The translations under genes and the position numbers were made by a program. The notes beneath the pieces are model-generated. The model saw nothing but the letters and a program-made list of their open reading frames with translations. It was not told where the DNA came from and did not search any database. From an uncultured Planctomycetota bacterium (GTDB lineage: Bacteria; Planctomycetota; Planctomycetia; Isosphaerales; Isosphaeraceae), in assembly GCA_963845755.1 (NCBI GenBank), contig CAWJTV010000005.1:352001-416000 (forward strand): DNA of 64,000 bases, read 5' to 3'. Every line of letters starts with the position of its first letter. Position 1 is the stretch's first letter. Shown here one piece after another: positions 32,730-50,089 of this stretch.

Positions 32730-35700
32730 GTGAGTCGCAACACAGTGGGTTTCCGGTGGCGGAGCCGTTCCGGCGCGGGCTGGATCGTGGGATGGCGATC
32801 CCGGCGGGGGGATCGGCACCGGCTCCGGCCGGGATTGCTGGAGCTGGAGGAGCGCCGGCTGCTCGCGACGTTCCCCGTCACCAGCACGGCCGACGACAAC
32901 AGCCCCGGCACCTTGCGGTATGAGATCAACGAAGCCAACGCGGCCACGGGTCCCACCACGATTGAATTCAGTGCCACGGTCTTCAGCACGCTGAAGACGA
33001 TCGCGCTGATCGGGAGCCAGCTCGAACTGAGCAACACCGATGGGCTGATCACGATTACTGGCCCGGCGGCGGGCGTGAACATCAGCGCCGGCGGCCTCAG
33101 CCGCGTCTTCCAGGTCAACAAGGGGGTGACGGCGTCGATCTCGGGCCTGACCATGACCGGGGGCAAGGTGAGTGGTAACGGAGGAGCCCTGGACAACCTC
33201 GGCACGGTCACCCTGACCAAATGCACGATCAGCGGCAGCACCGCCACGAGCAGCAGCGGCGGCGGCCTGTTCAGTACGGGAACCGCCTACCTGATCAACT
33301 GCACCGTGAGCGGCAACTCCGCCACATATGGCGGCGGCCTGTTCAATGACAAAGGCACGATGACCCTGACCGATGATTGCACGGTCAGCGTGAACAAGGC
33401 CGGGTACGATGGCGGCGGCCTGGGCAATTCCGGCACAGTCAACCTGACCAACTGCAACCTCAGCAGCAACAAGGTCTACCCTGGCGGTGGCGGCGGCCTG
33501 GACAATCAGGGCACGGCCTACTTGACCGACTGCACCCTCGAGTCCAACTCTGGCAAGGGTTACGGCGGCCTGTACAATTCCGGCACAGCCAAACTGACAG
33601 ACTGCACGGTCAGCAGCAACTTGGCCAATTTCGGCGGCGGCGTGGGGAATTTCGGCACAGCCAACCTGACCAACTGCATCCTCAGCGAAAACATGGCGGG
33701 CATCGCCGGCGGCGGCCTGGACGAGGGGAAGGGCCAGGCCACCCTGACCGACTGCACCATCAGCGGTAACGTGGCTCAACTCGGAGGAGGGGTGAGGATT
33801 GGCGGTGCGGGTAAGGCAACCCTGACCGACTGCACCCTTAGCGGCAACTCGGCGACGGCAGGCAGCGGTGGCGGCCTGCGCAGTAGTAGCTATGAAGCGA
33901 ACGCAGCAATCCTGACCGACTGCACCATCAGCGGCAACTCCGCGTCAAATCAGGGCGGCGGCCTGTATAAGGAGAGTAATGGCACGATGGATCTGACCGC
34001 ATGCACGGTCAGCGGCAACTCGGCCAGTAACGGCGGCGGGCTGTATAACACCAGCTACTTCAGCTCCAACTCCCAGGCGACGCTCACCGACACGATCGTC
34101 GCCGGCAATACTCTTCCGAACGGATCTACTCCCAACGACATCCAGGGTCCGGTCAGTGTCTCTGGCAGCGATAACTTGATCGGCCCCGGTGGTGCGGGTG
34201 GGCTTCAGAATGGGAGCGCCGGCAACATCGTGTTGGGCGACCTGAGCACCCTGGGCCTGGCCCCACTAGGATTCTACGGCGGCCCGACCCAGACCATGGC
34301 GCTCCTCCCCGGCAGCGCGGCCATCCACAACGGCACGATGGTCAGCGGCGTAACAACCGACCAGCGTGGCGAGTCGCTCGACTCACCCCCCGACATCGGG
34401 GCCTTCCAGGTTCAGACCGGGCTGGTCGTCAACACCATCAGCGACGGCTCGGTCTCGGTCTCCGGCGACCTGAACCTGCGCCAGGCCGTCAACCTGGCCA
34501 GTGCGCTCGACGCCTCCGAGACGATCACCTTCGACGCATCGGTCTTCGCTACTGCACAAACAATCACGTTGATGCAGGGACCGCTCGCGCTGAGCGACAC
34601 CGGTGGGACGGAGACGATCACAGGCACTTCAGCGGGGTTGACCATCAGCGGCGGGGGCGACAGCCGCGTGTTCGACGTCGCCGCCGGCGTGACCGCCGTC
34701 ATCTCGGAACTCACCATCACCGGCGGCTCGGCCAGTACTAACGGCGGCGGCCTGTATAACCAGGGCACGACGACGATCGCCGACTGCACCATCACCGGAA
34801 ACTTGGCGAAAGACAACGGTGGCGGGCTGGCAAGTGTTGGCACACTGGTCGTCACCAACTGCACGATCCGCGGCAACTCGGCCAGCGGCGGCGGCGGCCT
34901 AGCGATCAGCGGCACGGCGAGCCTGACCGACTGTACGATCAGCGGCAACTCCGCCGGCGGAACCGGCGGCGGCCTGTATAACCAGGGTGCGGCGACGTTG
35001 GAGGACACAATCGTCGCCGGGAATACCGGGAGCGGCGGCACCGCGAGCGACATCCACGGCAGCGTCGCGGGCTCCAGCTCGTTTAACCTGGTTGGCACCG
35101 GGGGCTCGGGTGGACTGAGCGTTTCCGACCACAACCTGCTCAACGTCGCCGATCCCGATCTGGCTCCACTCGGCGAGTACGGTGGACCGACGGAAACCCT
35201 GGCACTCTTGCCCGGGAGCGCGGCTATCGGCGCGGGCACGGCCGTGAGTGGTATCACCACCGACCAGCGAGGAGCATCCCGACCGAGTTCCGGCGGTGTC
35301 AACATCGGGGCCTTCCAGGATCAGGGTTACACCCTGGCCGTCTCCTCGGGAAGCTCTCAGAGCACGTTCGTCAGCCAGGCCTTCGCGTCTCCGCTGGTGG
35401 CCGAGTTGACCGAGAACGATACAAGCGCACCGCTCCCGGGCGTGACGATCGGCTTCAGTGCGCCGTCATCGGGGGCCAGCGCCACACTCGGTGCCAGCTC
35501 GGCGGTCACCGACTCGAGCGGGCGCGCGAGCATCACGGCCACGGCCAATGCGACCGCCGGCACCTACGTCGTGACAGCCTCCGTATCCGAGCTGACTTCC
35601 TCAGCTTCATTCACCCTGACCAACCAGGTTCAGCCGACCTTTTCGGGGCTGAGCAGCCAGACGATCAGTTATGGCAGTACGGTGACGTTCTCGGGCACGC

Positions 35701-38597
35701 TCGCAGCCGGTTCGCAGGTCCCGGTTGGCGAGGACGTTGCCGTCACGGTCGATAGCGTCACGCAAGACGCCACGATCGCCTCCGACGGTTCGTTCTCGAT
35801 CCAATTCACTCGTTCGAACGTGGTGCTGAACGCGAGCTTGACGGCCTACAGCGTCACCTACGTCTACGCCGGCGATCGTGTTTTCCTCGCGGTCGACGGA
35901 TCGAGCCAACTGACGGTCAACCCGGCGGCGCTGACGATCGCCGCCAAGAATGCCGGCAAGACCTACGGCCAGACGTTGACCTTCGCCGGGACCGAGTTCA
36001 CCACCTCCGGACTCGTCAACGGCGACACGGTCACCTCCGTCACACTGAGTAGCCCCGGCACGGCGGCGACGGCCACAGTCGCCGCCTCCCCCTACGCGAT
36101 CACCGCCACCGCGGCCGTCGGCACGGGCCTGGGCAACTACACCATCACCTACGCCCCGGGTCAGCTCACCGTCAACCCGTCGGCGCTGACGATCACCGCC
36201 AAGAATGCCGGCAAGACCTACGGCCAGACGTTGACCTTCGCCGGGACCGAGTTCACCACCTCCGGTCTCGTCAACGGCGACGGGGTCGGCAGCGTGACGC
36301 TGAACAGTCCGGGGGCGGCGGCGACGGCCACGGTCGCCGGCTCGCCTTATGCCATCAAAGCCTCCAACGCCGTCGGCACCGGCCTGGGCAACTACACGAT
36401 CACCTATGTCAATGGCCAGCTCACGGTGAACCCGGCGCCGCTGACAATCGCGGCGAAGGACCTCAGCAAGACCTATGGGCAGACGTTGACTCTCGCCGGG
36501 ACTGAGTTCACCGCCTCCGGCCTCGTCAACGGCGACGCGGTCAGCTCCGTCACGTTGTCAAGCCCCGGCGCGGCGGCGACGGCCACAGTCGCCGGCTCTC
36601 CCTACGCGATCACCGCCTCCGCGGCCATCGGCACCGGCCTGGGCAATTACACCATTAGCTATGTCCCGGGTCAGCTCACCGTCAACCCGGCGGCGCTCAC
36701 GATCGCGGCGGTGGCCGACACCAAGACATACGACGGCACGACGAACGCGACGGTGGTCCCGAAGATCACCTCGGGAAGTTTGGCCAATGGTGACATGCCC
36801 GAGTTCACCGAGACCTACAGCGCCCGGAATGTCGGCACGGGGCTGACGCTGACGCCGAGCGGGACGGTCAACGACGGCAACGGCGGCCACAACTACACAT
36901 ACACATTCGTGGCGGTGTCGACGGGCACGATCACTCCGGCCCTGCTGACCGTCACCGCCAAGAATGACGGCAAGGCCTACGGCCAGACGTTGACCTTCGC
37001 CGGGACCGAGTTCACCACCTCCGGACTCGTCAACGGCGACACGGTCAGCAGCGTGACGCTGAACAGCCCGGGAGCGGCGGCGACTGTCACGGTCGCCGGC
37101 TCGCCCTATTCCATCACCGTCTCCTCCGCCGCCGGCACGGGCCTGGGCAATTACACCATCACCTATATCAATGGTCAGCTCACGGTGAACCCGGCGGCGC
37201 TGACGATCACCGCCAAGAATGCCGGCAAGACCTACGGCCAGACGTTGACCCTCGCCGGGACCGAGTTCACCACCTCCGGACTCGTCAACGGCGACACGGT
37301 CAGCACCGTCACGCTGACTAGCCCCGGCGCCGCCGCGACCGCCGGCGCCGCCGGCTCGCCTTACGCGATCGCGGTCTCCAACGCTGGCGGCACGGGCCTG
37401 GGCAATTACACCATCACCTACGCGCCGGGAACGTTGACGGTTACCCCGGCCACGCTGACCATCACGGCGGGCGACGCGACGAAGGTCTACGGTGCGGCGC
37501 TGCCGGCCTTAACGGCGAGCTACAGCGGCTTCGTCAACGGCGACACGGCGGCCAGCCTTGCCACCCCGCCGTCGCTGTCAACGACCGCGACCGCGACGAG
37601 CCCGGTCGTGTCCGGCGGTTATCCGATCACGGCCTCAGGTGCCGTGGATCCCAACTATGCGATCACCTACGTGGCCGGGACGCTCACGGTCACCCTGGCA
37701 CCAGCGGCGATCTCGGTTTCCGCGCCCGGCGGCACGTTCAATGCCAGCCCCTTCTCGGCGTCCGTCACACTGAGCGGGACGGGCAACCCGCCCGCCGCCA
37801 CCCTGGAAAACGTCAGTCCCCGATTGACCTACTACGCCGGGTCGGGGACCTCGGGCACCAAACTCGGGTCGACGCCGCCGGCCCCCACGGGGACCTACAC
37901 CGTCGTTGCCGCGTTCCCCGGCAGCACCGACTTCGCCGCGACCCAGTCCTCGCCGATCTCCTTCACGATCGCCCAGGCTCCCTCGACGGTCGTGCTCACA
38001 TCCTCCGGCAACTTGGCCGTTTTCGGCCAACCGATCATTCTCATGGCGACCGTCACGGGCCCCGGGACCCCGGCCGGGTCCGTCCTGTTCACCGACGGCG
38101 GCACGACGCTTGCCACCGTTCCTCTTGACGCCTCGGGTCGAGCTTCGATCACCACCTCGGCCCTCGGCATGGGCTCGAACCCCATCGTCGCCACCTACAG
38201 CGGCAATAACAACCTTCTCGCCGCGACGTCCAGCTCTACCTTGGTATCAGTTACTAAGGCCGATACCCGGGTGATCCTGGTGCCGCGGGCCGTCAACAAG
38301 AGGAAGAAAGTCGCGTCACTGAGCCTCGATGCGGAGGTCCAGCCTTTACCGCCCGGGGCTGGTGTGCCCTCCGGCACCGTCACCTTCGAGGTCAGGCAGA
38401 AGAAGAAACTCAAGGTCATCAGCATCGTCCCGCTCAACAGCGGGTCGGCGACCGTGTCCGTCAAGCCCAGCACGGTGCGGAAGAAGTCGGTCACGATCGT
38501 GTACGGGGGCGACAGCGCATTCCAGTCGAGCAGTTCGTCCGCCACAGTGTCGGTCAGGCCGGCGACGGCCCTCGCGCGAGTCACGATCCGATCGTGA
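32730..38597 (+). CDS. Giant secreted adhesin-like protein: LEPRxLL-type leader, beta-helix GGGL repeats, choice-of-anchor-Q-like segments, Ig-like/MBG/YDG repeats, basic C-terminal Ig domain
   Basis: RLRPGLLELEERRLLA; repeated LTDCTISGNSA..GGGL; LAPLG.YGGPT.T.ALLPGSAAI..TDQRG..IGAFQ twice; KTYGQ repeats; GTG 32730 preceded by GAGG. Confidence 0.9.
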   Translation: MSRNTVGFRWRSRSGAGWIVGWRSRRGDRHRLRPGLLELEERRLLATFPVTSTADDNSPGTLRYEINEANAATGPTTIEFSATVFSTLKTIALIGSQLELSNTDGLITITGPAAGVNISAGGLSRVFQVNKGVTASISGLTMTGGKVSGNGGALDNLGTVTLTKCTISGSTATSSSGGGLFSTGTAYLINCTVSGNSATYGGGLFNDKGTMTLTDDCTVSVNKAGYDGGGLGNSGTVNLTNCNLSSNKVYPGGGGGLDNQGTAYLTDCTLESNSGKGYGGLYNSGTAKLTDCTVSSNLANFGGGVGNFGTANLTNCILSENMAGIAGGGLDEGKGQATLTDCTISGNVAQLGGGVRIGGAGKATLTDCTLSGNSATAGSGGGLRSSSYEANAAILTDCTISGNSASNQGGGLYKESNGTMDLTACTVSGNSASNGGGLYNTSYFSSNSQATLTDTIVAGNTLPNGSTPNDIQGPVSVSGSDNLIGPGGAGGLQNGSAGNIVLGDLSTLGLAPLGFYGGPTQTMALLPGSAAIHNGTMVSGVTTDQRGESLDSPPDIGAFQVQTGLVVNTISDGSVSVSGDLNLRQAVNLASALDASETITFDASVFATAQTITLMQGPLALSDTGGTETITGTSAGLTISGGGDSRVFDVAAGVTAVISELTITGGSASTNGGGLYNQGTTTIADCTITGNLAKDNGGGLASVGTLVVTNCTIRGNSASGGGGLAISGTASLTDCTISGNSAGGTGGGLYNQGAATLEDTIVAGNTGSGGTASDIHGSVAGSSSFNLVGTGGSGGLSVSDHNLLNVADPDLAPLGEYGGPTETLALLPGSAAIGAGTAVSGITTDQRGASRPSSGGVNIGAFQDQGYTLAVSSGSSQSTFVSQAFASPLVAELTENDTSAPLPGVTIGFSAPSSGASATLGASSAVTDSSGRASITATANATAGTYVVTASVSELTSSASFTLTNQVQPTFSGLSSQTISYGSTVTFSGTLAAGSQVPVGEDVAVTVDSVTQDATIASDGSFSIQFTRSNVVLNASLTAYSVTYVYAGDRVFLAVDGSSQLTVNPAALTIAAKNAGKTYGQTLTFAGTEFTTSGLVNGDTVTSVTLSSPGTAATATVAASPYAITATAAVGTGLGNYTITYAPGQLTVNPSALTITAKNAGKTYGQTLTFAGTEFTTSGLVNGDGVGSVTLNSPGAAATATVAGSPYAIKASNAVGTGLGNYTITYVNGQLTVNPAPLTIAAKDLSKTYGQTLTLAGTEFTASGLVNGDAVSSVTLSSPGAAATATVAGSPYAITASAAIGTGLGNYTISYVPGQLTVNPAALTIAAVADTKTYDGTTNATVVPKITSGSLANGDMPEFTETYSARNVGTGLTLTPSGTVNDGNGGHNYTYTFVAVSTGTITPALLTVTAKNDGKAYGQTLTFAGTEFTTSGLVNGDTVSSVTLNSPGAAATVTVAGSPYSITVSSAAGTGLGNYTITYINGQLTVNPAALTITAKNAGKTYGQTLTLAGTEFTTSGLVNGDTVSTVTLTSPGAAATAGAAGSPYAIAVSNAGGTGLGNYTITYAPGTLTVTPATLTITAGDATKVYGAALPALTASYSGFVNGDTAASLATPPSLSTTATATSPVVSGGYPITASGAVDPNYAITYVAGTLTVTLAPAAISVSAPGGTFNASPFSASVTLSGTGNPPAATLENVSPRLTYYAGSGTSGTKLGSTPPAPTGTYTVVAAFPGSTDFAATQSSPISFTIAQAPSTVVLTSSGNLAVFGQPIILMATVTGPGTPAGSVLFTDGGTTLATVPLDASGRASITTSALGMGSNPIVATYSGNNNLLAATSSSTLVSVTKADTRVILVPRAVNKRKKVASLSLDAEVQPLPPGAGVPSGTVTFEVRQKKKLKVISIVPLNSGSATVSVKPSTVRKKSVTIVYGGDSAFQSSSSSATVSVRPATALARVTIRS
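35910..37700 (+). repeat. Tandem ~255-bp Ig-like (MBG) domain repeats: five closely similar copies, one YDG-type unit, one diverged copy
   Basis: Recurring GCCAAGAATGCCGGCAAGACCTACGGCCAGACGTTGACCTTCGCCGGGACCGAGTTCACCACCTCCGG. Confidence 0.88.
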
Positions 38598-38649: not shown

Positions 38650-39906
38650 TCAGGCGACGACCTCGGCCTTGGTCAGGGCGGAGTGCGGGACCCGAGCGCC
38701 TTCCACAGCCCGTCCGCCCTCTCCCAAGAAGAGACCCTGCCAGCCCCGGCTCACGGAAGCCAGTGTCAACGCCCCGCCGAGCCCGCCGGCCAGCGCGAAC
38801 GCGAGAAAGCCCCCGCCGAAGCTGCCCAACGTCTGTTTCAATACGCCCAGGACGATCGGCAGCACGAAGCCGCCGAGCCCGCCGGCCGCCCCGACGATCC
38901 CGGTCACCACGCCGATCTCCCTGGGAAACCGCTGCGAGACGATCTGGAACACGCACCCGTTGCCCATACCCAGCGCCGTCATGACCGCGAACAACAGGAC
39001 CGTCCCGGCGAACAGCGACGGCAGGGCCGACATGCCCAGCATCGTGGCGCCGACGACCAGATAAAGTGCAGTCAGCACCCGGACGCCCCCGAACCGATCG
39101 GCGAGATAACCACCCAGGGGCCGCAGCAGAGAGCCGGCGATCACGCAGAGCGTGGCGAAGCCGCCCGCCTCGACCTTCGAGAGTCCGTACTGGCTGAGGA
39201 AGAAGACGTTCAGGAAACTCGCCAGCCCGACGAACCCACCGAAAGTGATCGCGTAAAAGAAGCAAAACCACCAGGTGTCGGCGAGCTTGAGCACGGCGGC
39301 ATAGTCGGTAAAGGGCCGAGGCGGCGGCTGATCGGGACTGTCCTTGGCGATGATCAGGAGCACAGTGAGCGTCGCCAGGAGTGGGATCAGCGCCAGGCCG
39401 AACACGGCGTGCCAGCCCCAGGTCGCGGCGAGCCGCGGACCGAAGAACGTGGCCAGGGCTGTACCGCAGTTGCCGGCGCCGGCGATCCCCATCACCAGCC
39501 CCTGAAAACGCGGCGGATACCAGCGGCCTGCCAGCGGCAACGCCGCGGCGAAGCTCGCCCCCGCCACGCCCAGCAGCAGGCCGACCAGCAGCAGCGTGGC
39601 GAAGCTGTCCGCCCAGAGCCAGCCGAGCAGCAAGGGCAGCGTCGACAGCGACATCCCCAGAATGGTCGTCCGCCGTGCGCCGATCCGGTCGGTCAAGAGT
39701 CCCATCACCAGTCGCAGCACGGCCCCGCCGAGAAGCGGCACCGCCACCATCAAGCCCTTCTGCATGTCCGATAGGCCATACTCCGACGCGATCGAGTTCG
39801 CCAGCGCCGCGGGGATAAGCCAAACCATGCAGCTCACACCGAAATACAGGAAGGCACTCAGCAAGGTTGGCACATGGCCGGCACGGCGGAATTCGCTCAA
39901 GTTCAT
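38650..39906 (-). CDS. narK: Nitrate/nitrite MFS transporter (NarK/NasA family)
   Basis: GHVPTLLSAFLYF, LRLVMGLLTDRIGAR, nitrate signature GIAGAGNCG, FGGFVG, RPLGGYLADRFG, GMGNG, GAAGGLGGF. Confidence 0.93.
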   Translation of the reverse strand: MNLSEFRRAGHVPTLLSAFLYFGVSCMVWLIPAALANSIASEYGLSDMQKGLMVAVPLLGGAVLRLVMGLLTDRIGARRTTILGMSLSTLPLLLGWLWADSFATLLLVGLLLGVAGASFAAALPLAGRWYPPRFQGLVMGIAGAGNCGTALATFFGPRLAATWGWHAVFGLALIPLLATLTVLLIIAKDSPDQPPPRPFTDYAAVLKLADTWWFCFFYAITFGGFVGLASFLNVFFLSQYGLSKVEAGGFATLCVIAGSLLRPLGGYLADRFGGVRVLTALYLVVGATMLGMSALPSLFAGTVLLFAVMTALGMGNGCVFQIVSQRFPREIGVVTGIVGAAGGLGGFVLPIVLGVLKQTLGSFGGGFLAFALAGGLGGALTLASVSRGWQGLFLGEGGRAVEGARVPHSALTKAEVVA

Positions 39907-40053
39907 TGCTTCGAGGCTCCGGGTTTCGGGATATCGGAGTCGGATCGTTGCGAGCAGCTCGCGATGAGGTTGCATAAATTAAATCTATATATATAAATAT
40001 TAAAATAATTTATTTATTTTATTGACGCCGATGAATATAGTGTACGGGTGCTT

Positions 40054-40159: not shown

Positions 40160-43123
40160 CTAGACGCAGGCCACCGCGCATGGCTTGGAGGCTCGGGCAC
40201 GGCGTTGCATCTCCTTCACGGGCGGCAGCTCGACGTACACGTCTTCCCCTTCGATCCGCATTGGGAAGACTTCAACCCGGTACGACTCGCCGGTCAGGCA
40301 CTCCCCCGTCTCGAGCGAGAACGTCTTCTTGTGCATCGGGCAGGCGACTTTGGGAACGCCTTGATGATCACCGAGGATGCCGCGAGAGAGGACGGCTTCG
40401 AGCTTGTGAGGGCAGGTATTCTGGCTGGCGTACCACTCGCCCCGGGAATCGAATCGGTAGACGGCGATCTCGGCATCGCCGTGCTTGATCGCGCGGCCGC
40501 CGTCGCGGGGGAAGTCGCTGACCGACCCGACGCGGACCCAGCGGGGAGTGTGCCCGAACTCGTGCGATCCGTCCTTCCGTTCGAGCGGCTGCCGGATCCC
40601 GAGCTGCTCGATGGGGACGAAGTCGCTAGGCCAATCGGCGGGGTGCTTCTGGCCTCGCTCCGACACGAACTCCACGCCCGAGGTCGCCTCGTCGGTGTTG
40701 GCGAACTGCTTGAAGAACCGCCGCTTTTCCGGGTCGTTGACAACGGCCTTCCATTCGCACTGGTAAGAATCCACGAGCCCTTGCATCTGCTCTTCGAGCT
40801 CATCCGCGATGCCGAGACGATCGTTGACGATCACGTCGCGGAGGTACTCGATCCCGCCCTCCAGGTTCTCGAGCCAGACCGACGTCCGGGTCAGCCGGTC
40901 CGCGGTCCGGATGTAGTACATCAGGAACCGGTCGAGATACTGAAGCGCCGTCTCTTCGTCGAGGTCGGCAGCGAGTAGGTCGGCATGCCGCGGCCGCACG
41001 CCGCCGTTACCGCAGACGTAGAGGTTGTAACCCTTTTCTGTGGCGATCAGTCCGAAGTCCTTGCCCTGGGCCTCGGCGCACTCCCGGACGCAGCCTGAAA
41101 CAGCCCCCTTGAGCTTGTGCGGGGCGCGGAGCCCCCGGTAGCGCATCTCGACCCGGATGGCGAACCCGACCGAGTCCTGGACGCCGTACCGGCACCAGGT
41201 CGAGCCGACGCAGCTCTTAACAGTTCGGACCGCCTTGCCATACGCATGGCCGCTCTCGAAGCCGGCCGCGACCAGCTCGGCCCAGATCTCCGGAAGGCGG
41301 TTGACCGGCGCCCCGAAGAGGTCGATGCGCTGACCTCCCGTGATCTTGGTGTAGAGGCCGTATTTCCGCGCAACCGTGCCCAAGACGATGAGCTTCTCCG
41401 GCGTGATCTCGCCGCCGGGAACTGCGCGGGACCACCGAGTACAGACCGCCACGCTGGATGTTGGCCAGGAAGCGGTCGTTGGTGTCTTGCAGCGTCGCGT
41501 GGGCCGCGTCGAGGACGTTCTCGTTCCAGATCGTCGCCATGATTGAAGCGACTGCCGGCTTGCAGATCTCGCAGCCCTGCCCGCGGCCGTGCGACGCGAT
41601 CAGGTCGTCGAACGTCCGGATCTGCTTGATCATCGCGATCTGATAGAGTTCCTGCCGGCTGTACGCGAAGTGATCGCAGAGCCGGTTGTCGACCCGTGCG
41701 CCCGCTGCCTTAAGCTCCGCCTTGAGGAGTTCAGTAACCCGCGGCAGGCAGCCGCCGCAGCCGGTGCCGGCTTGCGTGCACTCCTTGACCTGCACGACGG
41801 TCGTGATCTTCCCGTCCCGGATCACGTCGCGGATCTGACCTTCGCTGACGTTGTTGCACGAGCAGACCTGGGCGTCGCTGTCGTTACTGCAAGCGGCGCC
41901 CTTGCCCGCGGAGAGCATGTCGCCCGGTGAGATCGGGAGCGGCTTCTCGCTCTTGAACAGGCCGAGCAACGCGCCGAAGTCCGAGGCGTCGCCAACCAGG
42001 ATGCCGCCCAGCAGACGGGTGCCCTCGCGATTGAAGACCAGCTTCTTGTAAACGCCTCCGAACGGATCGTGGTACGTCAGCGCCCGCGCCCCCTCGGTCT
42101 CGTTAAACGGGTTGCCGAAGCTGGCGACGTCTACACCCATGAGCTTCAATTTGGTTGACATATCGAATCCGGAAAAGGCCCTAGGCGCCCCCGTAAGGTT
42201 CGCCGCGGCGACTTCGGCCATCGCGTACCCGGGCGCGACCAGGCCGTAGACCATATCCCGGTGTGCGGCGACCTCGCCGATGGCGAAGATGTCGGGATCT
42301 GAGGTCCGCATATTGTCATCCACGACGACCCCGCCGCGCCGGCCAGTTGCGAGTCCGCAGTCGTGGGCCAGCTCGTCGCGGGGCCGGATGCCGGCCGAGA
42401 TGACCACCATGTTGACCTCGAGCCGCCCGCCGTCTGCAAACGCCAGACCCTCAACCTTGCCGTTGCCCAGGAACTCCTGCGTGGCCTTCCCCAGATGGAC
42501 TCGGACATTCATCCCCTCGATTTTCTCGAGCAGCGTCCGCGCGCGGCGTCGTCGACCTGGCGGGGCATCAACCGCGGGGCGAACTCGACGACGTGGGTCT
42601 CCAGCCCGAGCTCGCGGACCGCCTTCGCGGCCTCGAGTCCGAGCAGGCCGCCGCCAATCACCGCCGCGGACGCCGCCTCCCCGGCGTAGGCGAGGATTCC
42701 TTCGAGGTCTTCAATAGTTCGATAAACGAACACTCCCCTCTTATCAACACCGGGGACTTTCGGCACGAACGGCGAAGAGCCGGTCGCCAGGACGACGGTG
42801 TCGTATTTGATCTCGCGGCCCGTTGACGAGATGACGATCCGACGCTCGCGGTCGATAGCCGTGGCGCGCTCGCCGACGTGGAGTGTGATCTCCTTCTTGG
42901 CGTACCACGTCGTGCAGGCCAGCTTCAGATGCTCGGCCTCGCGCCGCTCGAAGTATTTCGACAGGTTGACGCGATCATAAGCAGGCCGAGGCTCCTCGCA
43001 GAATGTCACGATCTGGTAGTTCTGGTCGACGTCGTACTCCACCAGCCGCTCACAAAACCGGTGACCGACCATCCCATTACCGATCACCACCACGGTTTTC
43101 TGCGGGCGATTCCGGGCGATCAT
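40160..43123 (-). CDS. nirB: NAD(P)H nitrite reductase, NirB fused to a C-terminal NirD Rieske domain; frameshifts near 42542 and 41423
   Basis: [39 protein letters not shown], siroheme/4Fe-4S CVGSTWC and SGCVREC, then in frame CPHK..CPMH (Rieske). Confidence 0.93.
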
Positions 43124-45416
43124 TGGAGTAGGCTCCCCATGGTGGTTGTTTGTGGGAACACTGTGCCGAGCGGCGTCCCCGGTACGAGCTCATCGGGCCG
43201 GATCGCCCGGACCCGCGCCGCGCAGGCCTTGTAGGCGGGCTGCCGGGACTCGGGATCGAAGACGGCGTCGGTCAGTCGGTTGGTGGATCCGTCGTGCATG
43301 GGCAAGAAGAGATGTCGAATCGGGACGGTCGGAGTCAGGAACGCTCGGACGCGAGCCTGCCCCCGGCGTGACTCGACGATCACCCACTGGCCGGGCCGCA
43401 AGCCGAGACCCTCGGCGTCGGCAGGGTTGATCTCGACGTAGGGGTCCTGGGGATACAACTTCCGCAGGATATCGGACTTGCCCGTACGTGTCTGGGTATG
43501 CCACTGTGCGGCACTACCTCGGCCGGTCAGGAGCTGGAGAGGAAACTCGCCGCCCGGTGGCTCGGGCGTCGGGCGCGGCTCCTCGAAGACGAACCGGGCG
43601 CGGCCGTCCTTGTGGTAGAAACGGCCGTCGACGAAGAGACGCCGTTGCGGAGCGAGATCCGCGCCCTCGGTCGGGAACGGCCACTGGATACCGCCGGTCT
43701 CGTCGAGCATGTGGTAGTCCGTGATGCCGGAGATGTCGCAGGGCATCTCCGTCGTGAGCGTCTTTAGGGACCGGAAGACCGCCTCGGGCGATTCCCACAG
43801 GGCGAACATCGAGCCGCAACCGTAGTAATGAGCGACGAGCTTGAAGATGTGGAAGTCGGACAGGGCCTGGCCCGGGGCGCGGCGCACTTTCTTGATCAGC
43901 CCGATCCGCCGCTCGGAGTTAATGAATGTACCCTCCTTCTCACCCCAGGCGGCCGCCGGCAACACTAGGTCGGCAAGTCGGGCCGTCTCGGTCGAGTGGT
44001 ACATGTCCTGCACCACCAAGAAGTCCAGCCGGTCGAGGATGGCGCGGAGACGGTCCTGGTCGATCCAGGAGTGGGCCGGGTTAGTGCCGATCACCCACAG
44101 GCCACGGATCTTGCCATCTCGAATGCCATCGAGGATCTGATCGTAGGCCCAGCTCGCGCTCCTGGGGATCCGTTCCTCAGGGATCCCGAGCAGTCCGGCG
44201 ACCTTGGCGCGGTGCAAGGGGTTGGCGAAGTCGTGTCCCCCAAGAAGATTGGTGGTGTTCGAGAACAGTCGGGAGCCCATCGCGTTGCACTGGCCGGTGA
44301 TCGAGTTGGCCCCGGTCCCCGGCCGTCCGATCTGACCCGTCATGAGCGCCAGGTTGATGATCGCCTGCGCCGTGCGCACACCCTGATGGCTCTGGTTGAC
44401 GCCCATCGTCCACCAGAAGGAGACGCGTGAGCGCTCGTGGATTCGCCGTGCTGCATCGTGGATCGTTTCGGCGCTCAGACCAGTCTCGCCGGCCACCCGC
44501 TCATCATCGAAGGGGCGGACGAAGGCGGCGAATTCGTCGAATCCGGTCGTATGGGCCTCGATGAACGGCCGGTCGATCCAACGGTTACGGATCAGCACGT
44601 TTGCCAGGCTATAGAGAAGCACGAGGTCGGTCTTGGCCCGCACCGGAAGGTGGAGCGAGGCGGCCATCGCCGTCTCGGTCCTCCGGGGATCGACGACGAT
44701 GATCTCTGGCGAGTTGCGGTTACGCATCACCCGCTCCCAGAGGATCGGGTGGGCGATGCAGACATTTGCGCCGATCAGGACGATGCAATCCGACTCCTCA
44801 AGATCCTCGTAGGAGTAAGGCGGGGCATCGAACCCGAACGCCTGCTTGTAGGCCACGACGGCCGTCGCCATGCATTGGCGCGTGTTGCCGTCGCCGTGAA
44901 CCACACCCATGCCGAACTTGGTCAAGGCCCCGAGCATCGCCATTTCTTCGGTGGCGATCTGACCCGTGCTCAGGAAGGCGATGGACTCGTCGCCGTGGGC
45001 CGCCTGGATCGCTCGGAACCGGTCTGTCATCGCCGTCAGCGCAGTGTGCCAGTCGACCGGCGACTGCTGGCCATCCGCGCCCTCAGGAGTGGCACCGTGG
45101 CGCGGTCGGGGGCATCCAGGACGCTCAGCGCTTCCCAGCCCTTGGGACAGGCCAGGCCGCGATTCACGGGGTAGTTGGTCGTCGGGGTGAGATTAACCGC
45201 CTCGCCATTGCGGATGTGGATGGTGAGGCCGCAGCCCGTGGAACAGAAGCCACAGACCATCCCCGTCGTCGCGTCGGGTGTCTTGCCGGCGGGGACTTGC
45301 CCCAGCCCAAACCCGCCCTGAGCCCTGAGCAGTTCGCGAGTCAATCGGCCGTCGCGGGCACGGACGAAGTTGAGTGCGCGGTCGAGCAGTGTCGGGCTCC
45401 CGCTGGCGATCGTCAC
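43120..45416 (-). CDS. nasA: Assimilatory-type nitrate reductase catalytic subunit (Mo-bisPGD); frameshift near 45075
   Basis: [77 protein letters not shown] start overlaps the upstream TGA (GTGA). Confidence 0.9.
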
Positions 45417-47132
45417 GGCAGCAGCCCTCCCGGCATCTTCGGCCTGACAACCGCGGCGAAGAACAGGTACCGCTCGGCAGTCTCCGCTCCGATCGATGTC
45501 GCCAGCGCGAGGATCGCAATTGCCGCCGTCGTTCCGGGACGCGCCCCAGGCCGCTGCCGAGATGGCCAGCGCCGGCAAGACGACGCCGCCCGCCAGGCCA
45601 AGCGATTGTCGTAGCCTGGACTGTCGATTCAGCGCCCCGCGAAGCAGGAGTGCCGTTCTTTGCAATGTTCTCACATCGGACCGGGAGAAGTCGCGAACGA
45701 GCTTCGCCTCGAACCCGAGTTTGGCGAACGAAGAGGCGATCAAGCCCATTGCCACGAGCCACAAAGGAAACGACGAGATCGCGTCAAGTGCGTCGGCGCC
45801 GCCGACCTGAGCGATGCCCAGCGCCGCCAGTGCAGTGGCCAGGCCGAGTACAACCGCGGTTCCCGCGAACTTGATCCCGACGTAACACGCGCGCCAGAAC
45901 TCCCGTCGAACGGCGTGGTAGACCATCACCGAGCTAGCAAGGCCCGCCACTCCCGACGCGACAACGGCCCCGAGCAGAGCCAATCGCAACCCCGCCGAAA
46001 CGGGCACCCAGACCGGTCGAAAGAGATCCAGCGCCACGGAGACAGTCGCGAGTGCCGCGAAGAACCCGAAGGCGAGCACCTCGCGACTGAGCCACGAATG
46101 CCTCAGGCCGATGATCGCTCGGTAAGCATAGAGTGGCCGGCCCAGATGGAGGACGCTCGCTATCAGCCCCGCCCATCCCATGCCGAGGCAGAGGGCGGTG
46201 TGGAGGACCGTGCCGACGCCGTGGGTCGCCCCGCCTGCGACGGCGGCCAGTTCTACCACGAAGCCGCCGACCGCCAGTTGAGTCAGCACGAGCATGACGA
46301 CCAGTGGCCAGTGAGCGTGCTCGGGCTCGAGGCGGTGGTCATCCGCCGGCAACACGTCCCCGGGTCCCCGCAGGTGGCTCGACCGGTAAAAGGTTGTTGG
46401 TAGAGTGGATCCCGGATCCGGCACACCGGGCAGGAACACACCAGCCTCGGCCCGCGCGATGACCTCTTTGCGATCTACGATCCGAATAACGATCGCCTCG
46501 TGCGGGCAGGCCTGGATGCAAGCCGGGGCCTCACCGGCCGCGAGTCGATCGCTGCACATGTCGCATTTGCGGACGATTCCCTTGCCCGCGTGAAACCTGG
46601 GCGCATCGTACGGGCAGGCCAAGGTACAGTACTGGCAACCGAAGCACTGGTCGTCGAGATGCCGGACGATCCCCGTGACTGGGTCCTTCTCGTAGGCGTC
46701 GACCGGGCAGGCGGTCAGGCAGGCCGGTTCCAGACAATGATGGCACGCGGTTGTTATATGCTGAAGGATCGGCAGCCCCGGCTGTCCACCAAGGACCAGG
46801 CCCACCTCGCGCCAGGACTCGCCTTCGTCTAACCCGTTGAGGTTGTGGCAAGCTGCCACGCATGCCTTGCAGCCGGAACATCGGTCAAGGTCAACCTCGA
46901 ACGCATACTGCTGCCCAGGACCCGGGGGTTGGGCCGGCATCAGGGCCGAGTAGTACCGGCCCTGGAGCGGCGCATCCGCGTCTTCGTGGATCTGTGCGAA
47001 CCGCTCCACGGCGCTGAGGTCCCACTGCTCCTCCAGGAAGGAACCGATCAGGCCGGCGTTCGGCAGGATCGCCCCGAACGCTGGCTCTCGGTCCAGCACC
47101 GGCATCGTAACCTGCGATCCAGCGAAGTTCAT
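45413..47132 (-). CDS. Fused DmsB-like 4x[4Fe-4S] domain and DmsC/NrfD-like membrane anchor; frameshift near 45535
   Basis: CSGCKAC..C, CHHC..PAC..CP, CFGCQYC..CP, KCDMC..PAC..CP; then HWPLVVMLVLTQ, SVLHLGRP..SWLSRE, about 8 TMs, and ERYLFF end in ORF 45413-45601. Confidence 0.88.
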
Positions 47133-47273
47133 AAAAACAAAGCTCCGGTCGAATGTCCGGCGTCAGGACGAGGAATCGCCGCTCGGGCTTCACTCGAATG
47201 GCTGTGCAGGTGTGGCCGCCAAGCACTGCCGGTGAGGAGAGGAACCAGATGGCGATCAGCGGATGAGGCAAGA

Positions 47274-47289
47274 AGCAGAGCTCGTGCCG
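47274..47289 (-). promoter_or_regulatory. Sigma54 (-24/-12) promoter for the dmsBC-nasA-nirBD operon
   Basis: Minus strand reads CGGCACGAGCTCTGCT, i.e. GG-N10-GC with GGCACG and TGC, about 140 bp upstream of ATG 47132. Confidence 0.7.
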
Positions 47290-47456
47290 AGCTATGGGCC
47301 AGCCGTCACATCTAAGGTGAATCGCTTCGGAACGACGAAAGCCAGTTTCGGATGGCTTCGGTTTCCCTTCAAGGGCTTGCGCAAAACCGAAGGGTCAACC
47401 GCATGGACCCGAGATCGAGGCCCGCCCAGGCTTTGGGCGCGATTGCTAAAGATCAA

Positions 47457-47473
47457 GGCACGCTCGCGGTGCC
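47457..47473. promoter_or_regulatory. NtrC-like enhancer site
   Basis: GGCAC-GCTCGCG-GTGCC matches GCAC-N7-GTGC, about 170 bp upstream of the sigma54 element. Confidence 0.5.
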
Positions 47474-47586
47474 AGAGCTGGCCAGACTCGCTCGTGCGCA
47501 AGGACCAGTCGGGTTGTCTGGGAGCACTAATCCTCGTCGCTCTCCCGCCCCAGCGCGCTCAATGGAACTGGTCCCGGGACGACGTC

Positions 47587-48220
47587 TCAACTCGGGTCGC
47601 GGACGCCTTCTAACCCGACCTCGTGGACGACGGTCAGCCGCAGGAGTTCGATCAGTGAGCGGACCCCGAGCTTGCGCATAAGGCTCGATCGCCTCAGCTC
47701 GACGGCTCGGGGCGTGATCTGGAGCGAGCTCGCGATTTCCTTATTCGGCCGCCCCTCCTTGATCAATTCGAGGACCTCGCGCTCCTTGTCGGTCAGCCGG
47801 TCGAATCTCAGTGCCAGCTTCTCGCGATTGGCGATCCGGCCGCGGCGCTCGGTGTCGTTCTTGATCGCGCGCTGGACCTTGTCCAGGAGAGTCTGGCGAT
47901 TGAACGGCTTCTCGACGAATTCGACGGCACCGGACTTCATGGCCCGAACCGCCATCGTGACATCGGCATATGCCGTGATGAAGATGACGGGCATGCCTTC
48001 GCCACGCGCGACCAATTCTTCGAAGAGGTCGAGACCGCTTGTTCCCGGCATCCGCACGTCGAGGATCACGCAACCAGGCCCGTCCGGGGTGAAATCGCGG
48101 AGGAATTCGGCGGCTGAGGCGAATGTCTGCGGGGCGGAGCCCGACGGTCTTCATCAGCCAGCGCAGCGAGTCCCGCATGTCGGGGTCGTCATCCACGATG
48201 TAAACTGCTGACTGATCCAT
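47587..48220 (-). CDS. FixJ/TtrR-family response regulator (REC plus LuxR HTH); frameshift in the C-run near 48132
   Basis: VYIVDDDPDMRDSLRWL, ILDVRMPGTSGLDL, AMKSGAVEFVEKPF, LTDKEREV..NKEIA..VELRRSSLMRKL. Confidence 0.9.
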
Positions 48221-49670
48221 CGTCGATACTGCCGGACGGAAGCCTGAAGTGGAAGCTTGTTCTGGCGCCGGGACAGGATGTGACGCTGATCCGCCCCTGG
48301 TGGGCCTCGATGAGGGTTCGGCAGATCGCCAGGCCCATGCCCAGCCCACCGGCACGCGTGCTGAAGTACGCATCAAAAACCCGGTCCAGTGACTCGGGAT
48401 CGATCCCCTCTCCATTGTCGATGACGGCGAATTCGACACCCCCGGACTCGGCTCGCTGTGTCTGCATAACTAACATGGGCTGAAGCGGTTGCGCCGCGAG
48501 AGCCTCGAAAGCATTTCGAACCAGATTCACGAGGACCTGCTGAATCTGAATGGGATCGCCCCACAGATAAGGCAAATCGGGTGCCAGCTCTACCCGGACG
48601 GCAATCCCCCGCTGTTCGGCCTCTCCGCGGAGGATCTCCTGGACCTCCTCGACGACTCGGTTCGGCTCGAATCTCTCGCGCCTCAGTTCATGGCGGGTTA
48701 CAAACTTGCGGATCCGGTCGATGATCTGGCCGGCGCGGAGCGTCGTGGCCAGCAGTCGCTCCACCGCAGTACGGACTTCATCCAGGGCCGGCTGTGGCGC
48801 CGCGAGTTCGACCAGACAGCCCTCGGCGTAGTTGGCGATGGCACCCAACGGCTGGTTGAGCTCGTGGGCCAAGCCGCAGGCCATTTCGCCGATCGTCGTC
48901 GTGCGTGCGACGTGACTGAATTGCTCGACGAGCGCACGGTGCCGCTCGCCGGCGAACTCCAACTCGCGGGTCCGCAAGAGGACTCCGGCCTCCAGATCGT
49001 CACGCGCCTGCTTCAACTCGGAGATCCGGCGCCGGATCAGTGCAGCCGCCGGTCGGAGGATGAACAGGCCGATCGCCGCGAGGGTCACCAGGATCAAGCC
49101 CGTGACGATCCATCCGATACGACGAAGGTCGGCGACCCGACCTCGTGCTTCTCTCTCGTAAAGTCCGACGACTTGATCCATTCGTCGGAGGTATTCGGCC
49201 TCGTTGTCGAGGATGATTCCCACTTCCTCCCGTACCCTGGCGATGCCGTGCCGGAATTCGTTGTCGTCTTGCGTCATCTGCCGCGCCGCGTCGCGCATCT
49301 TCACATAGTAGGGATAGAGGCCCTGCAGCCTGTCCCGCACGATCTCACTACTCCGGCCGACTCGTGATGGAGCCTCTTCGTCGCGAAGGAGTTGTTCCTG
49401 GGAGACGGACCAGATTCCGAGCACCTGTCTCATCTCTTCGAGATAAGCCTGCGCCCCTCCGCCCCGCCCGCCTTCGATGGCCAGGGCAGCCTTGACCAGG
49501 CGCTGACTGAGCATACGCTGCCGACCGGCAACATTGATCAAGGGGGCATCGGTCATCAGTTGGATCAAATACGGCTGGACCAACACCTGATTGCCCAGGA
49601 CCAGGATCGCTACAACGGCTAGAGCGATCCAGTACCTCTGGCCGAAGATTTCCACAATCTGCTCATTCAT
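48189..49670 (-). CDS. Sensor histidine kinase: PilJ/NarX-type periplasmic domain on a FixL-like HisKA/HATPase core
   Basis: TM, INVAGRQRMLSQRL, TM; GEMACGLAHELNQPL, QQVLVNLVRNAFEA, DNGEGI, FSTRAGGLGMGLAIC. Confidence 0.9.
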   Translation of the reverse strand: MNEQIVEIFGQRYWIALAVVAILVLGNQVLVQPYLIQLMTDAPLINVAGRQRMLSQRLVKAALAIEGGRGGGAQAYLEEMRQVLGIWSVSQEQLLRDEEAPSRVGRSSEIVRDRLQGLYPYYVKMRDAARQMTQDDNEFRHGIARVREEVGIILDNEAEYLRRMDQVVGLYEREARGRVADLRRIGWIVTGLILVTLAAIGLFILRPAAALIRRRISELKQARDDLEAGVLLRTRELEFAGERHRALVEQFSHVARTTTIGEMACGLAHELNQPLGAIANYAEGCLVELAAPQPALDEVRTAVERLLATTLRAGQIIDRIRKFVTRHELRRERFEPNRVVEEVQEILRGEAEQRGIAVRVELAPDLPYLWGDPIQIQQVLVNLVRNAFEALAAQPLQPMLVMQTQRAESGGVEFAVIDNGEGIDPESLDRVFDAYFSTRAGGLGMGLAICRTLIEAHQGRISVTSCPGARTSFHFRLPSGSIDDGSVSSLHRG

Positions 49671-50089
49671 AATTGTGTCTCGATGACATGGCTGCCTCAG
49701 CGCTTTGTGGCGATACGCTTGTCGATCGCCACCATGGCCCTGCAGACTCTGGGCATCAGGGCGGTCATCCGGGTCGTGCCCCTCCACGATCCGTTCGAGA
49801 TCCGTGTCCCGACACTCCTCGTTCCGATCACTCGGGGCTCGCTGTGTTCATTCTGCCGGTTCTGCCGGCAAGCTTGAAGAGGATGACCGGCAGGTTTTCC
49901 GGAGCTGGTCTGATCTTCGCACCATCGGCTTCGACCTGTAACGTCATCCTGGTCGGTATCAGCCATGGCTCGAAGAGCCCGGCGCGCCCTCATCATACGG
50001 AATCGGCCTCCCAGGACTTGCGGGCCTTCAGTATGATTGGCAGGTTCCGATACGGAGCGGGCAGGTCATCGCATCGAAAGGAGTCATCG

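Follow-up and report, generated by a model that had tools for sequence, protein, structure and literature searches.

The minus strand of the analysed DNA, a 64,000-nucleotide stretch (the window), carries an operon that we think probably, if not certainly, encodes a three-module membrane quinol:nitrate reductase that faces the cytoplasm and serves assimilation. We infer its electron donor, the direction of electron flow, its substrate and its role. The reductase is predicted to face inward, and its Fe-S wire is fused to a quinol-type anchor; hence the electrons for nitrate reduction probably come from the respiratory chain and not from NADH or ferredoxin. This reading had been put forward in an earlier note on the same DNA, and it is supported in all the parts that sequence can test, each of which came out as predicted.

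Results

Operon organization

In minus-strand order, the operon comprises a NarX-like kinase, a response regulator, a DmsB-DmsC fusion, a Nas-type molybdoenzyme, NirB-NirD and NarK. The NarX-like sensor histidine kinase (48189..49787) has a PilJ-type sensor domain, HisKA and HATPase_c by Pfam, and the ATG at 49670 is its likely start. Kinases with a PilJ sensor and HATPase_c also adjoin the module in L056, L071, L074, L009, L011 and L014, with HisKA in addition in the first three. The FixJ/NarL-type response regulator (47587..48220) was found with the intact L005 regulator as tblastn query, as two pieces in two frames; against the NCBIfam FixJ model the L005 copy scores 206.9 bits, below the cut-off of 255.

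The fusion gene (45413..47132; 572 residues in relatives) starts with the ATG at 47132. As described earlier, its stop codon and the GTG start of the Nas-type Mo-bisPGD catalytic subunit (43120..45416; 765 residues in the relative G015) overlap in the sequence GTGA, at 45416-45413. An ATGA overlap at 43123-43120 joins the molybdoenzyme stop to the start of NirB-NirD, a fused NAD(P)H siroheme nitrite reductase identified by Pfam (40160..43123; 989 residues in L005). The intact L005 protein scores 1015.5 bits against NCBIfam NirB and 110.7 bits against NirD, and in the window copy the C-terminal Rieske domain keeps its CPH (40414-40406) and CPMH (40342-40331) motifs. The described order of NirBD and then NarK downstream of the catalytic subunit holds, both genes being present. 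NarK, a nitrate/nitrite MFS transporter (38650..39975), is intact: it carries Pfam MFS_1, aligns to L005 NarK as a single tblastn piece, and scores 276.4 bits against TIGR00886 (cut-off 311.7). It lies beyond the interval 40160..47132 that the earlier note had covered.

Integrity of the operon

The suspicion that indels interrupt these genes was borne out in the assembly, where the operon has four and the regulator one. One extra base near 45540 shifts the last 41 codons of the fusion into another frame, and further frameshifts fall near 45082 (NasA), 42543 and 41423 (NirBD) and 48138 (response regulator). A 698-residue open reading frame at 45036-47132 was rejected as a single protein; it runs from the fusion through a stretch in the wrong frame into the N-terminal part of NasA. 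The operon genes are uninterrupted in three relatives, G015/L096, L005 and L006. In the same assembly one frameshift breaks rpoB and two break rpoC, and an independent short-read contig (X1 record 5, 99% identity), which covers one of the five frameshift sites, lacks the extra base at 45540. The frameshifts are therefore very probably assembly errors, and the source organism most probably has a working operon.

It is very unlikely that the operon is instead a decaying pseudogene cluster whose four frameshifts are genuine mutations. Four breaks within 7 kb, next to an intact 5.9-kb open reading frame (32673-38597) and an intact NarK, would fit decay, as would the broken copies in the same-genus genome G001. 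Yet the G001 breaks sit at different positions, the essential rpoB and rpoC are broken at a similar rate, and it is exactly the 45540 base that the short-read contig is without. Moreover, aside from the shifts, the pieces share 78-88% identity with the protein of G015 or L005 and no aligned piece contains a stop codon, and several genomes of the family that consist of few contigs are 60-80% complete, which fits long-read indel errors.

The DmsB-DmsC fusion

The first of the operon's enzyme genes had been described as a DmsB-type ferredoxin fused to a DmsC-type anchor, and it does contain a full DmsB and a full eight-helix DmsC, along with a conserved N-terminal helix. All 16 Cys ligands for four [4Fe-4S] clusters are present in the window copy, in four groups (46880-46848, 46745-46704, 46646-46611 and 46565-46503), and each is conserved in no fewer than 149 of 151 representatives. 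Pfam detects Fer4_11 in the Fe-S half and the DmsC domain PF04976 at 50.8 bits against a gathering score of 22.3. By hhalign, the fusion-family profile matches E. coli DmsB with 99.9% probability and E. coli DmsC with 96.1% (E 3.5e-9; residues 274-566 against 5-277 of 287). Against the DmsB equivalog model TIGR02951, the window and G015 copies score 130.9 and 133.2 bits, both below the cut-off of 214.1; judged by sequence, the ferredoxin half is a relative of DmsB and no equivalog.

An AlphaFold model of the fusion (pLDDT 72.9, pTM 0.72), whose confidence is moderate in the Fe-S half, contains eight long helices across residues 275-559. Foldseek likens its Fe-S part to FdnH and PsrB and its membrane part to ActC and PsrC. 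A hydropathy scan found eight segments in three of six fusions and six, seven and nine in the others, the ninth being a weak N-terminal segment. Residues His329 and Glu351, each kept in 149 of the 151 representatives, align with E. coli DmsC His65, which we take to be a menaquinol-site residue, and Glu87, which Geijer and Weiner (2004) reportedly tied to the menaquinol site. In the window copy, their equivalents lie within the motifs HLGRP (46148-46134) and SWLSRE (46097-46080).

Predicted orientation and export

The orientation proposed earlier, with the fused Fe-S domain in the cytoplasm, agrees with the charge of the fusion's loops. In a crude, home-made topology scan that used no trained predictor, the loops of fusion P0121 held 4, 3, 6 and 3 Lys+Arg on the inside versus 1, 1, 1 and 0 on the outside, which fits a predicted N-in/C-in arrangement. 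A similarly home-made and crude Tat scan, in which the control E. coli DmsA scored positive, found no Tat-like leader on the reductase, matching the earlier description of a NasA without a twin-arginine signal. Only four of the 26 reductases scanned had an RR pair, at no conserved position, and the hydrophobic stretch was always weaker than in the control; nor did any of 26 fusions scanned combine RR with a hydrophobic stretch of control strength.

The catalytic subunit

By Pfam, the catalytic subunit contains only Fe4S4 (PF04879), Molybdopterin (PF00384) and Molydop_binding (PF01568). Neither Pfam nor an alignment with the Ruegeria, Leisingera and Ralstonia enzymes shows in it the C-terminal BFD-like 2Fe-2S domain that it was said to lack. 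The sole BFD domain found in genome G000 sits within the operon's NirB. An N-terminal arm of about 54 residues is present, and the FS0 Cys motif lies at 45254-45231 plus 45152-45138. In the Mo-ligand motif RQCMA (44880-44866), Cys182-Met183 align with residues 140-141 of D. desulfuricans NapA. Cys-Met is common to three of the four annotated Nas (of Ruegeria, Leisingera, Ralstonia and Streptomyces, our Nas references) and to both NapA references, and the three FdhF references have C-H or C-Q.

The intact G015 reductase scored below every curated NCBIfam cut-off: 465 bits for Fdh-alpha (cut-off 666), its top score and just above the 460.3 bits for haloarchaeal NasA (NF041323; cut-off 1000); 428.9 bits for NasC (NF047855; 1100); and 311.9 and 321.5 bits for the NapA models (930.55 and 904). 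The NarG model gave 16.8 bits and the DmsA model TIGR02166 only 101.6. NapA is the best solved relative (E 3e-106), and among plasmid homologues identity is higher to Nas (34-37%) than to FdhF (28-33%) or NapA (27-31%). In a 22-row tree, 11 fusion-linked reductases form one clade (support 93/98) with an uncharacterised Cetobacterium oxidoreductase as its sister (100/100). No support attaches to the forks linking this clade to Nas, FdhF and NapA, nor do the four Nas references group together. In its domains and its Cys-Met motif the catalytic subunit agrees with Nas enzymes.

Co-folding of the fusion with the reductase

Co-folding of the two proteins gave a score of 0.92 versus 0.01 for the best of three controls, and the same mark was attained by 116 of 157 complexes of solved structure and by 2 of 215 mismatched pairs. 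Because structures of comparable complexes exist (FdnGH, PsrAB and ArrAB), the high score may reflect memorised examples. Contact agreement between runs was at least 89%, and partner pLDDT at least 86. The closest contacts set reductase residues 88-95, the region of the fourth FS0 Cys, against fusion residues 88-97 in Cys group I. The N-terminal arm of the reductase (15-52) clasps the N-terminal helices of the fusion.

Pairing across genomes

The expectation that the fusion is conserved beside nasA stood up in the synteny survey: of 80 loci, 78 have the reductase immediately downstream of the fusion, and the other two lie at contig ends. An overlap of start and stop, by 4 or 1 nucleotides, occurs in 42 of the 69 pairs measured. 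Of 31 relatives, 11 have the fusion, and exactly these 11 also encode a reductase at least 62% identical; of 151 planctomycete genomes, 14 have it, and again exactly these encode a reductase at least 41% identical. In both sets the genes are adjacent. In none of the 11 genomes of the 151 whose best reductase match is 36-40% identical was the fusion found. The module loci examined come from soil and water Planctomycetota, Vicinamibacterales and Myxococcota, and Paludisphaera soli, Singulisphaera sp., Adhaeretor mobilis and Sorangium cellulosum are among the cultured carriers.

The module adjoins three kinds of siroheme nitrite reductase, MFS transporters and, once, glutamate dehydrogenase. NirB is present in 57 of the 80 loci, and other nitrite reductases in most of the remaining loci examined. 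Seven of 14 NirBD-less loci examined have a NirA-Rieske fusion just upstream of the module; in six of these (L041, L051, L052, L056, L071 and L074) it is about 950 residues long with a C-terminal FNR-type module, which the seventh, L037, lacks. L009 and L014 have a plain NirA without a Rieske domain beside the module.

Discussion

In the mechanism that we propose, the DmsC-type half of the fusion would bind menaquinol and oxidise it near the cytoplasmic surface, and the four [4Fe-4S] clusters of the DmsB-type half would conduct the electrons to FS0 of the reductase and on to the molybdenum centre. Nitrate imported by NarK would be reduced to nitrite at that centre, and NirB-NirD would take nitrite to ammonium with NAD(P)H. 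The NarX-like two-component pair would turn the operon on in response to nitrate. DmsC-type anchors are not known to carry haem. With a haem-less anchor, quinol protons and nitrate reduction share one side, so the step is expected to be electroneutral.

Comparison with known systems

E. coli DmsABC shares with the module a Mo-bisPGD subunit with FS0, a four-cluster DmsB and an eight-helix, haem-less DmsC. The module differs in having B and C as one polypeptide and in a catalytic subunit that is Nas/Nap-like, not DmsA-like, and without a Tat leader. The termini and partner subunits of E. coli DmsC are periplasmic, whereas the charge pattern predicts the inverse for the module, a cytoplasmic face. 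That orientation has a precedent in the sulfite:quinone oxidoreductase SoeABC of Allochromatium vinosum and Aquifex, a cytoplasm-facing enzyme with no Tat signal that has an Fe-S subunit and a quinone-reactive anchor. By analogy, SoeABC shows that an enzyme of this kind works facing inward. The likeness, drawn from descriptions, is one of design only: a cytoplasm-facing, Tat-less Mo-bisPGD enzyme with a quinone-reactive anchor. SoeB and SoeC are separate proteins, unlike their fused counterparts here, and electrons run from substrate to quinone in SoeABC, the reverse of what is proposed for the module. SoeC is regarded as belonging to a separate family from DmsC (PMC6303296).

The classical Nas references, like the module, have a cytoplasmic Tat-less catalytic subunit, an N-terminal 4Fe-4S motif (not in the Streptomyces sequence) and, in three of four, the Cys-Met motif; they also adjoin nirBD (Ruegeria, Leisingera) or nirD (Ralstonia). 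However, the three proteobacterial enzymes are extended at the C-terminus by some 150 residues, which include a Cys-rich BFD-like motif and are missing from the module clade. At the N-terminus they are short, the first Cys falling at residues 12-18, where the module clade has its 54-residue arm. No fusion gene was found beside the classical Nas in the Ruegeria, Leisingera, Ralstonia and Streptomyces loci. Classical enzymes, among them Klebsiella NasA with NasC, Paracoccus NasC with NasG/NasB and cyanobacterial NarB, draw on NADH diaphorases, ferredoxin or flavodoxin. NarGHI resembles the proposed module in oxidising a membrane quinol and reducing nitrate on the cytoplasmic side, but its catalytic family is a different one, as the NarG model score indicates. 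NarI, an anchor with two haems, carries electrons across the membrane in an energy-conserving step; with a DmsC-type anchor, which has no haem, no such redox loop is expected.

Alternative explanations

The same quinol:nitrate reductase might be mainly dissimilatory, working at low oxygen as an electron sink or redox valve while NirBD removes the toxic nitrite. One point for this role is the regulation, since the combination of a NarX-like kinase with a FixJ/NarL-type regulator is typical of respiratory nitrate systems. Another is the search for NarG, which found none above cut-off in G000; this leaves the module as the only quinol-capable nitrate reductase found there, in a genome that is 87.9% complete, so that genes not found may still exist. 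We nevertheless regard a mainly dissimilatory role as rather unlikely: with a haem-less anchor and with quinol site and active site on the same side, no energy would be conserved, and every neighbour is either a siroheme nitrite reductase that works in the cytoplasm and forms ammonium or an uptake transporter, with one glutamate dehydrogenase besides. The assimilatory and dissimilatory roles can coexist.

Electrons might also arrive from NAD(P)H by way of the nitrite reductase's flavin and Rieske domains, with the fusion acting as a tether or secondary route. An NADH-to-Rieske-to-reductase route has reportedly been proposed for Paracoccus NasB-NasG-NasC, and it becomes conceivable here because NirD keeps both Rieske ligand motifs and Rieske domains recur in other nitrite reductases that adjoin the module, namely the NirA-Rieske fusions. 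Still, we hold it to be unlikely. The NirA at the module in L009 and L014 is Rieske-less, a mere tether would need neither the 16 Cys nor the quinol-site His and Glu to be so widely conserved, and the co-fold sets FS0 against the first cluster of the fusion. The strict partner of the reductase, moreover, is the fusion rather than any single nitrite reductase. Most improbable of all is that the molybdoenzyme acts on formate, chlorate or another oxyanion and stands beside nitrite reductases by coincidence. The top NCBIfam score for Fdh-alpha, and a clade that lies apart from annotated Nas with an uncharacterised outgroup nearest to it, would be compatible with another substrate. Against it stand the Cys-Met motif, shared with NapA and most Nas and unlike the Cys-His or Cys-Gln of FdhF, the NapA match among solved structures, the higher identity to Nas among plasmid homologues, and the recurrence of NirB and other nitrite reductases beside the module.

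Implications

A literature search found no account of the fusion-reductase module. The case is about evenly balanced that the quinol-driven reductase proposed here defines a third class of assimilatory nitrate reductase, membrane-bound and facing inward, in which an inverted DmsB-DmsC fusion delivers electrons from respiratory quinol and neither NAD(P)H nor ferredoxin is used. The module may also serve as a docking site for the Rieske-bearing nitrite reductases, with nitrite passed on within the complex. If the proposal is true, nitrate assimilation in the carriers of this module would be tied to the redox state of the respiratory chain.

Results

The operon lies on the minus strand of the window, where GC content is 0.60–0.69 (1-kb windows). 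Its three central genes, spanning the interval 40160..47132 of the earlier note, encode a DmsB-DmsC fusion (hereafter the fusion; ATG 47132 to stop 45413), a Nas-type molybdoenzyme (the reductase; GTG 45416 to stop 43120) and a NirB-NirD fusion (ATG 43123 to stop 40160). As described earlier, fusion stop and reductase start share a GTGA (45416–45413), and NirBD and NarK (39975–38650) follow; an ATGA (43123–43120) is common to the reductase stop and the NirB start. Pfam and ORF calls place a sensor kinase whose sensory part is of PilJ/NarX type at 49787–48189 and a FixJ/NarL-type response regulator, split by a frameshift, at 48220–47587. Between regulator and fusion, a gap of ~450 nt with no evident gene (47133–47586) likely holds the operon's promoter and operator.

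Two plus-strand genes flank these. One, divergent from the kinase, encodes 1062 aa including a CarboxypepD_reg domain (49673–52861); the other, a 1974-aa ORF (32673–38597) free of frameshifts despite its length, carries six MBG (YGX-type) domains, YDG and Big_3_5 and probably encodes a large surface protein. Farther away, on the minus strand, 612–21617 is probably an exopolysaccharide/exosortase locus, with glycosyltransferases (GT2, GT4 twice, Glycos_transf_4), an FkbM methyltransferase, the exosortase EpsH and a chain-length-regulator-like P-loop protein.

The earlier note had pointed to indels in the operon. With intact proteins of relatives as tblastn queries, we mapped frame breaks in the fusion (45543/45538), the reductase (45084/45081), NirBD (42545/42542 and 41424/41422) and the response regulator (48141/48134), and short G/C runs or GC-rich repeats occur at all five. 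The 698-aa ORF that mechanical calling reports at 45036–47132 is a composite and not one gene product: it follows the fusion to ~45541, reads through out of frame, and then enters reductase residues 1–111, by chance in the same frame. DNA alignment reveals one surplus base in the window beside a GGGG run at ~45540.

Essential genes of the source genome (G000; 14.27 Mb, 49 contigs, completeness 87.9%) are broken in the same way. rpoB is divided over two frames (G000:C34:79366-83015), and rpoC drops out of frame and later regains it, indicating two shifts (G000:C34:567489-571586); the resulting three shifts in ~7.8 kb resemble the operon's four in 7 kb. In the same-genus genome G001 the operon genes are also broken, at other positions. 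A 319-nt contig from X1, a public short-read run independent of the assembly, covers 45384–45703 with one mismatch and one letter fewer exactly at 45540, the one site of five with near-identical independent cover. Because rpoB and rpoC are similarly broken, G001 is broken elsewhere and X1 lacks the base at 45540, we read that surplus base and the other indels as assembly errors, by inference at 45082, 42543, 41423 and 48138, where such cover is missing. The broken rpoB and rpoC and the X1 contig likewise led us to reject a pseudogene reading.

The G000 assembly carries about one indel per 2–2.5 kb of coding sequence, and any apparent pseudogene in it therefore needs checking. Completeness is 60–80% in several few-contig genomes of the family. 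Unbroken operon copies exist in the relative G015, whose contig ends inside NirB, and at loci L005 and L006; these copies are the basis for the folds and profiles below.

Homologues of the fusion are ~570 aa long and carry source names such as formate dehydrogenase iron-sulfur subunit, DMSO reductase anchor subunit and DmsC/YnfH family anchor; no curated NCBIfam model names the fusion above its cut-off. At least 7,989 homologues matched, out of 8,000 scored candidates. The family is large, comprising 828 clusters at 50% identity and E ≤1e-30 (10,555 matches among all 50%-identity representatives). In hhalign comparisons its profile aligns with E. coli DmsB (99.9% probability) and, over nearly the full length, with E. 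coli DmsC (96.1%, E 3.5e-9), which upholds the proposed joining of a DmsB-type ferredoxin to a DmsC-type anchor. The ferredoxin keeps the ligands for the four clusters ascribed to it: each of 16 cluster cysteines is kept in at least 149 of 151 representatives. DmsC His65, which we take to be a menaquinol-site residue, aligns with His329 of the fusion (HLGRP). DmsC Glu87, to which the title of a 2004 paper by Geijer and Weiner gives a role in menaquinol binding, aligns with Glu351 (SWLSRE). His329 and Glu351 are each kept in 149/151 representatives, and the window copy contains both, together with all 16 cysteines.

A hydropathy scan found eight membrane segments in three of six fusions and 6, 7 and 9 in the others. 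Lys+Arg loop counts alternate as expected for an N-in/C-in protein, a pattern that fits the cytoplasmic Fe-S domain anticipated earlier, as judged by crude hydropathy and charge scans. The AlphaFold model of the G015 fusion (26-row alignment; pLDDT 72.9, pTM 0.72) has eight long helices, with high confidence in the membrane part and moderate confidence in the Fe-S part. In Foldseek searches the Fe-S part resembled FdnH and PsrB, and the membrane part PsrC and ActC of alternative complex III.

The intact G015 reductase is 765 aa long. Among solved structures, the monomeric NapA of Desulfovibrio desulfuricans matches it best (E 3e-106), and formate dehydrogenases come next. Reductase Cys182-Met183 aligns with residues 140–141 of that NapA, the molybdenum ligand position; Cys-Met is present in 3/4 annotated Nas and 2/2 NapA references, and Cys-His or Cys-Gln in 3/3 FdhF references. 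The reductase reaches no equivalog cut-off among the curated NCBIfam models. Ranked against plasmid records, annotated nitrate reductases beside nirBD or nirD come first (34–37% identity), followed by FdhF (28–33%) and NapA (27–31%).

The Mo-bisPGD phylogeny proposed in the earlier note gave a divided answer. In a 22-row maximum-likelihood tree, with E. coli DmsA as a long-branch outgroup and three rows of unusual composition, the 11 reductases linked to a fusion group together as one clade (93/98), joined at 100/100 by a Cetobacterium oxidoreductase as sister, but the forks leading to proteobacterial Nas, Streptomyces Nas, FdhF and NapA lack support. Taken together, the Cys-Met motif, the neighbouring genes and a clade of its own with unsupported forks suggest that the reductase is nitrate-reductase-like by active site and context, yet a separate lineage. 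The sister, a molybdopterin oxidoreductase on a Cetobacterium somerae plasmid (L098:3980-8697), is the nearest outgroup of the clade; a small 4Fe-4S dicluster protein, an FAD-dependent oxidoreductase and a TDT transporter follow it, in what looks like a soluble system.

The proteobacterial Nas examples compared here end in a Cys-rich extension of ~150 residues. The reductase lacks it, in agreement with the reported absence of a C-terminal BFD domain, and has instead a conserved N-terminal arm of ~54 residues. We searched 26 reductases and 26 fusions for an RR pair with a hydrophobic stretch after it. None scored positive in this simple scan, whereas E. coli DmsA did; crude as it is, the scan leaves Tat export of either protein without support and accords with the leaderless reductase first described.

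Among the best 80 of at least 535 confirmed fusion loci, 78 have the reductase as the next gene downstream, in the same orientation; the two exceptions, L013 and L022, have the fusion at the end of a contig. Where the start could be placed (69 pairs), 42 show a start-stop overlap of 4 or 1 nt. Taxonomically, the loci fall in Planctomycetota, Vicinamibacterales, Sorangium and other Myxococcota, one Poribacteria genome and further lineages. Across 31 relatives, the fusion occurs in exactly the 11 that have a reductase at least 62% identical, adjacent in 11/11. Phylum-wide, 14 of 151 genomes have it, exactly those whose reductase reaches 41% identity or more, and in all 14 the two genes are neighbours; 11 further genomes of the 151, with best reductase matches of 36–40%, have no fusion at E ≤1e-60. 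The two samples have three genomes in common, and related genomes are not independent. The synteny expected in the earlier note is found in the loci and in both samples. In G039, G104, G121 and G137, Nas-like matches without a fusion sit in open frames of 1195–1278 aa, which suggests that these reductases carry an additional fused domain, perhaps a flavoprotein donor.

Co-folding of the G015 reductase with fusion residues 30–260, a pairing the earlier note had singled out, scored 0.92 (runs 0.92, 0.92 and 0.93); the best of three controls scored 0.01. This mark is reached by 116/157 solved complexes and 2/215 mismatched pairs. At least 89% of contacts agree between runs, and the partner has a pLDDT of 86 or more. 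Contacts are tightest between reductase residues 88–95, around the fourth cysteine of its 4Fe-4S cluster (FS0), and fusion residues 88–97, the first Cys group; the N-terminal arm (15–52) rests on the N-terminal helices of the fusion (30–60). Since comparable alpha-beta complexes have been solved (FdnGH, PsrAB and ArrAB), the modeled pass shows that the pair resembles such complexes but does not prove that it binds.

Of the 80 best loci, 57 contain NirB. Among 14 NirB-less loci, seven have a NirA-Rieske fusion just upstream, two have plain NirA, and five (L011, L035, L054, L062 and L073) have no nitrite reductase among the scanned ORFs. Six of the seven NirA-Rieske fusions also bear an FNR-type FAD/NAD module (L037 lacks it), giving polypeptides of ~950 aa that combine siroheme nitrite reductase (NIR_SIR), Rieske and FNR-type parts directly upstream of the fusion-reductase pair (L041:4032-6887, L051:4089-6926, L052:4017-6884, L056:4089-6932, L071:4002-6917 and L074:4125-6980). 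Found in Vicinamibacterales, Pirellulales and other planctomycete loci, they appear from their domains to unite a whole NAD(P)H nitrite reductase in one chain, which is unusual. Near the module there are also MFS transporters, alginate-export-type porins, NarX-like kinases and, in one case, glutamate dehydrogenase. The outer-membrane beta-barrels (PF13372; L041:410-2128, L052:10910-12628, L054:320-1807, L073:638-2116 and L014:4104-5780) recur beside nitrate operons and may be nitrate or nitrite porins.

Discussion

The reading we favor, and hold to be somewhat probable, is menaquinol-fed, cytoplasm-facing nitrate reduction through the fusion. Menaquinol would be oxidized at the DmsC-type site near the cytoplasmic face, and electrons would pass through the four clusters of the fusion to FS0, molybdenum and nitrate. 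Because the anchor has no haem, the quinol-to-nitrate step should be electroneutral.

Two other readings bear on donor and role. Electrons could come from NADH by way of the nitrite reductase, whose Rieske domain retains CPH and CPMH; we consider this route quite improbable. In G000, 87.9% complete, no BFD domain was found outside the operon's NirB. The system could also be mainly dissimilatory, with a redox-valve role, which we judge unlikely. The neighbouring nitrite reductases are all cytoplasmic and ammonium-forming, which fits assimilation. No NarG scored above cut-off in the same genome, at that completeness.

Textbook donors for bacterial assimilatory nitrate reductases are NADH diaphorases or ferredoxin/flavodoxin. 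If menaquinol feeds the reductase, a quinol-fed, membrane-bound form would be a third electron source. In the literature searched we found no account of a Nas enzyme with a DmsB-DmsC or NrfD-type anchor, and passages of PMC6303296, PMC4013037 and bioRxiv 10.1101/2020.10.19.345819 describe none. The module is CISM wiring, fused and by prediction inverted, in the service of a Nas-type enzyme. The window offers an example from a soil planctomycete, with seeming damage that we attribute to assembly error. Cultured carriers of the module, among them Paludisphaera soli JC670, Singulisphaera sp. GP187, Adhaeretor mobilis HG15A2 and Sorangium cellulosum So0157-2, make the quinol-fed idea directly testable. 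Since current annotation calls the fusion a formate dehydrogenase iron-sulfur subunit or a DMSO reductase anchor, surveys of the nitrogen cycle are probably mistaken about it. Were menaquinol the donor, the cost of nitrate assimilation would be tied to the respiratory chain, which would matter where quinone is reduced directly but NADH is costly.
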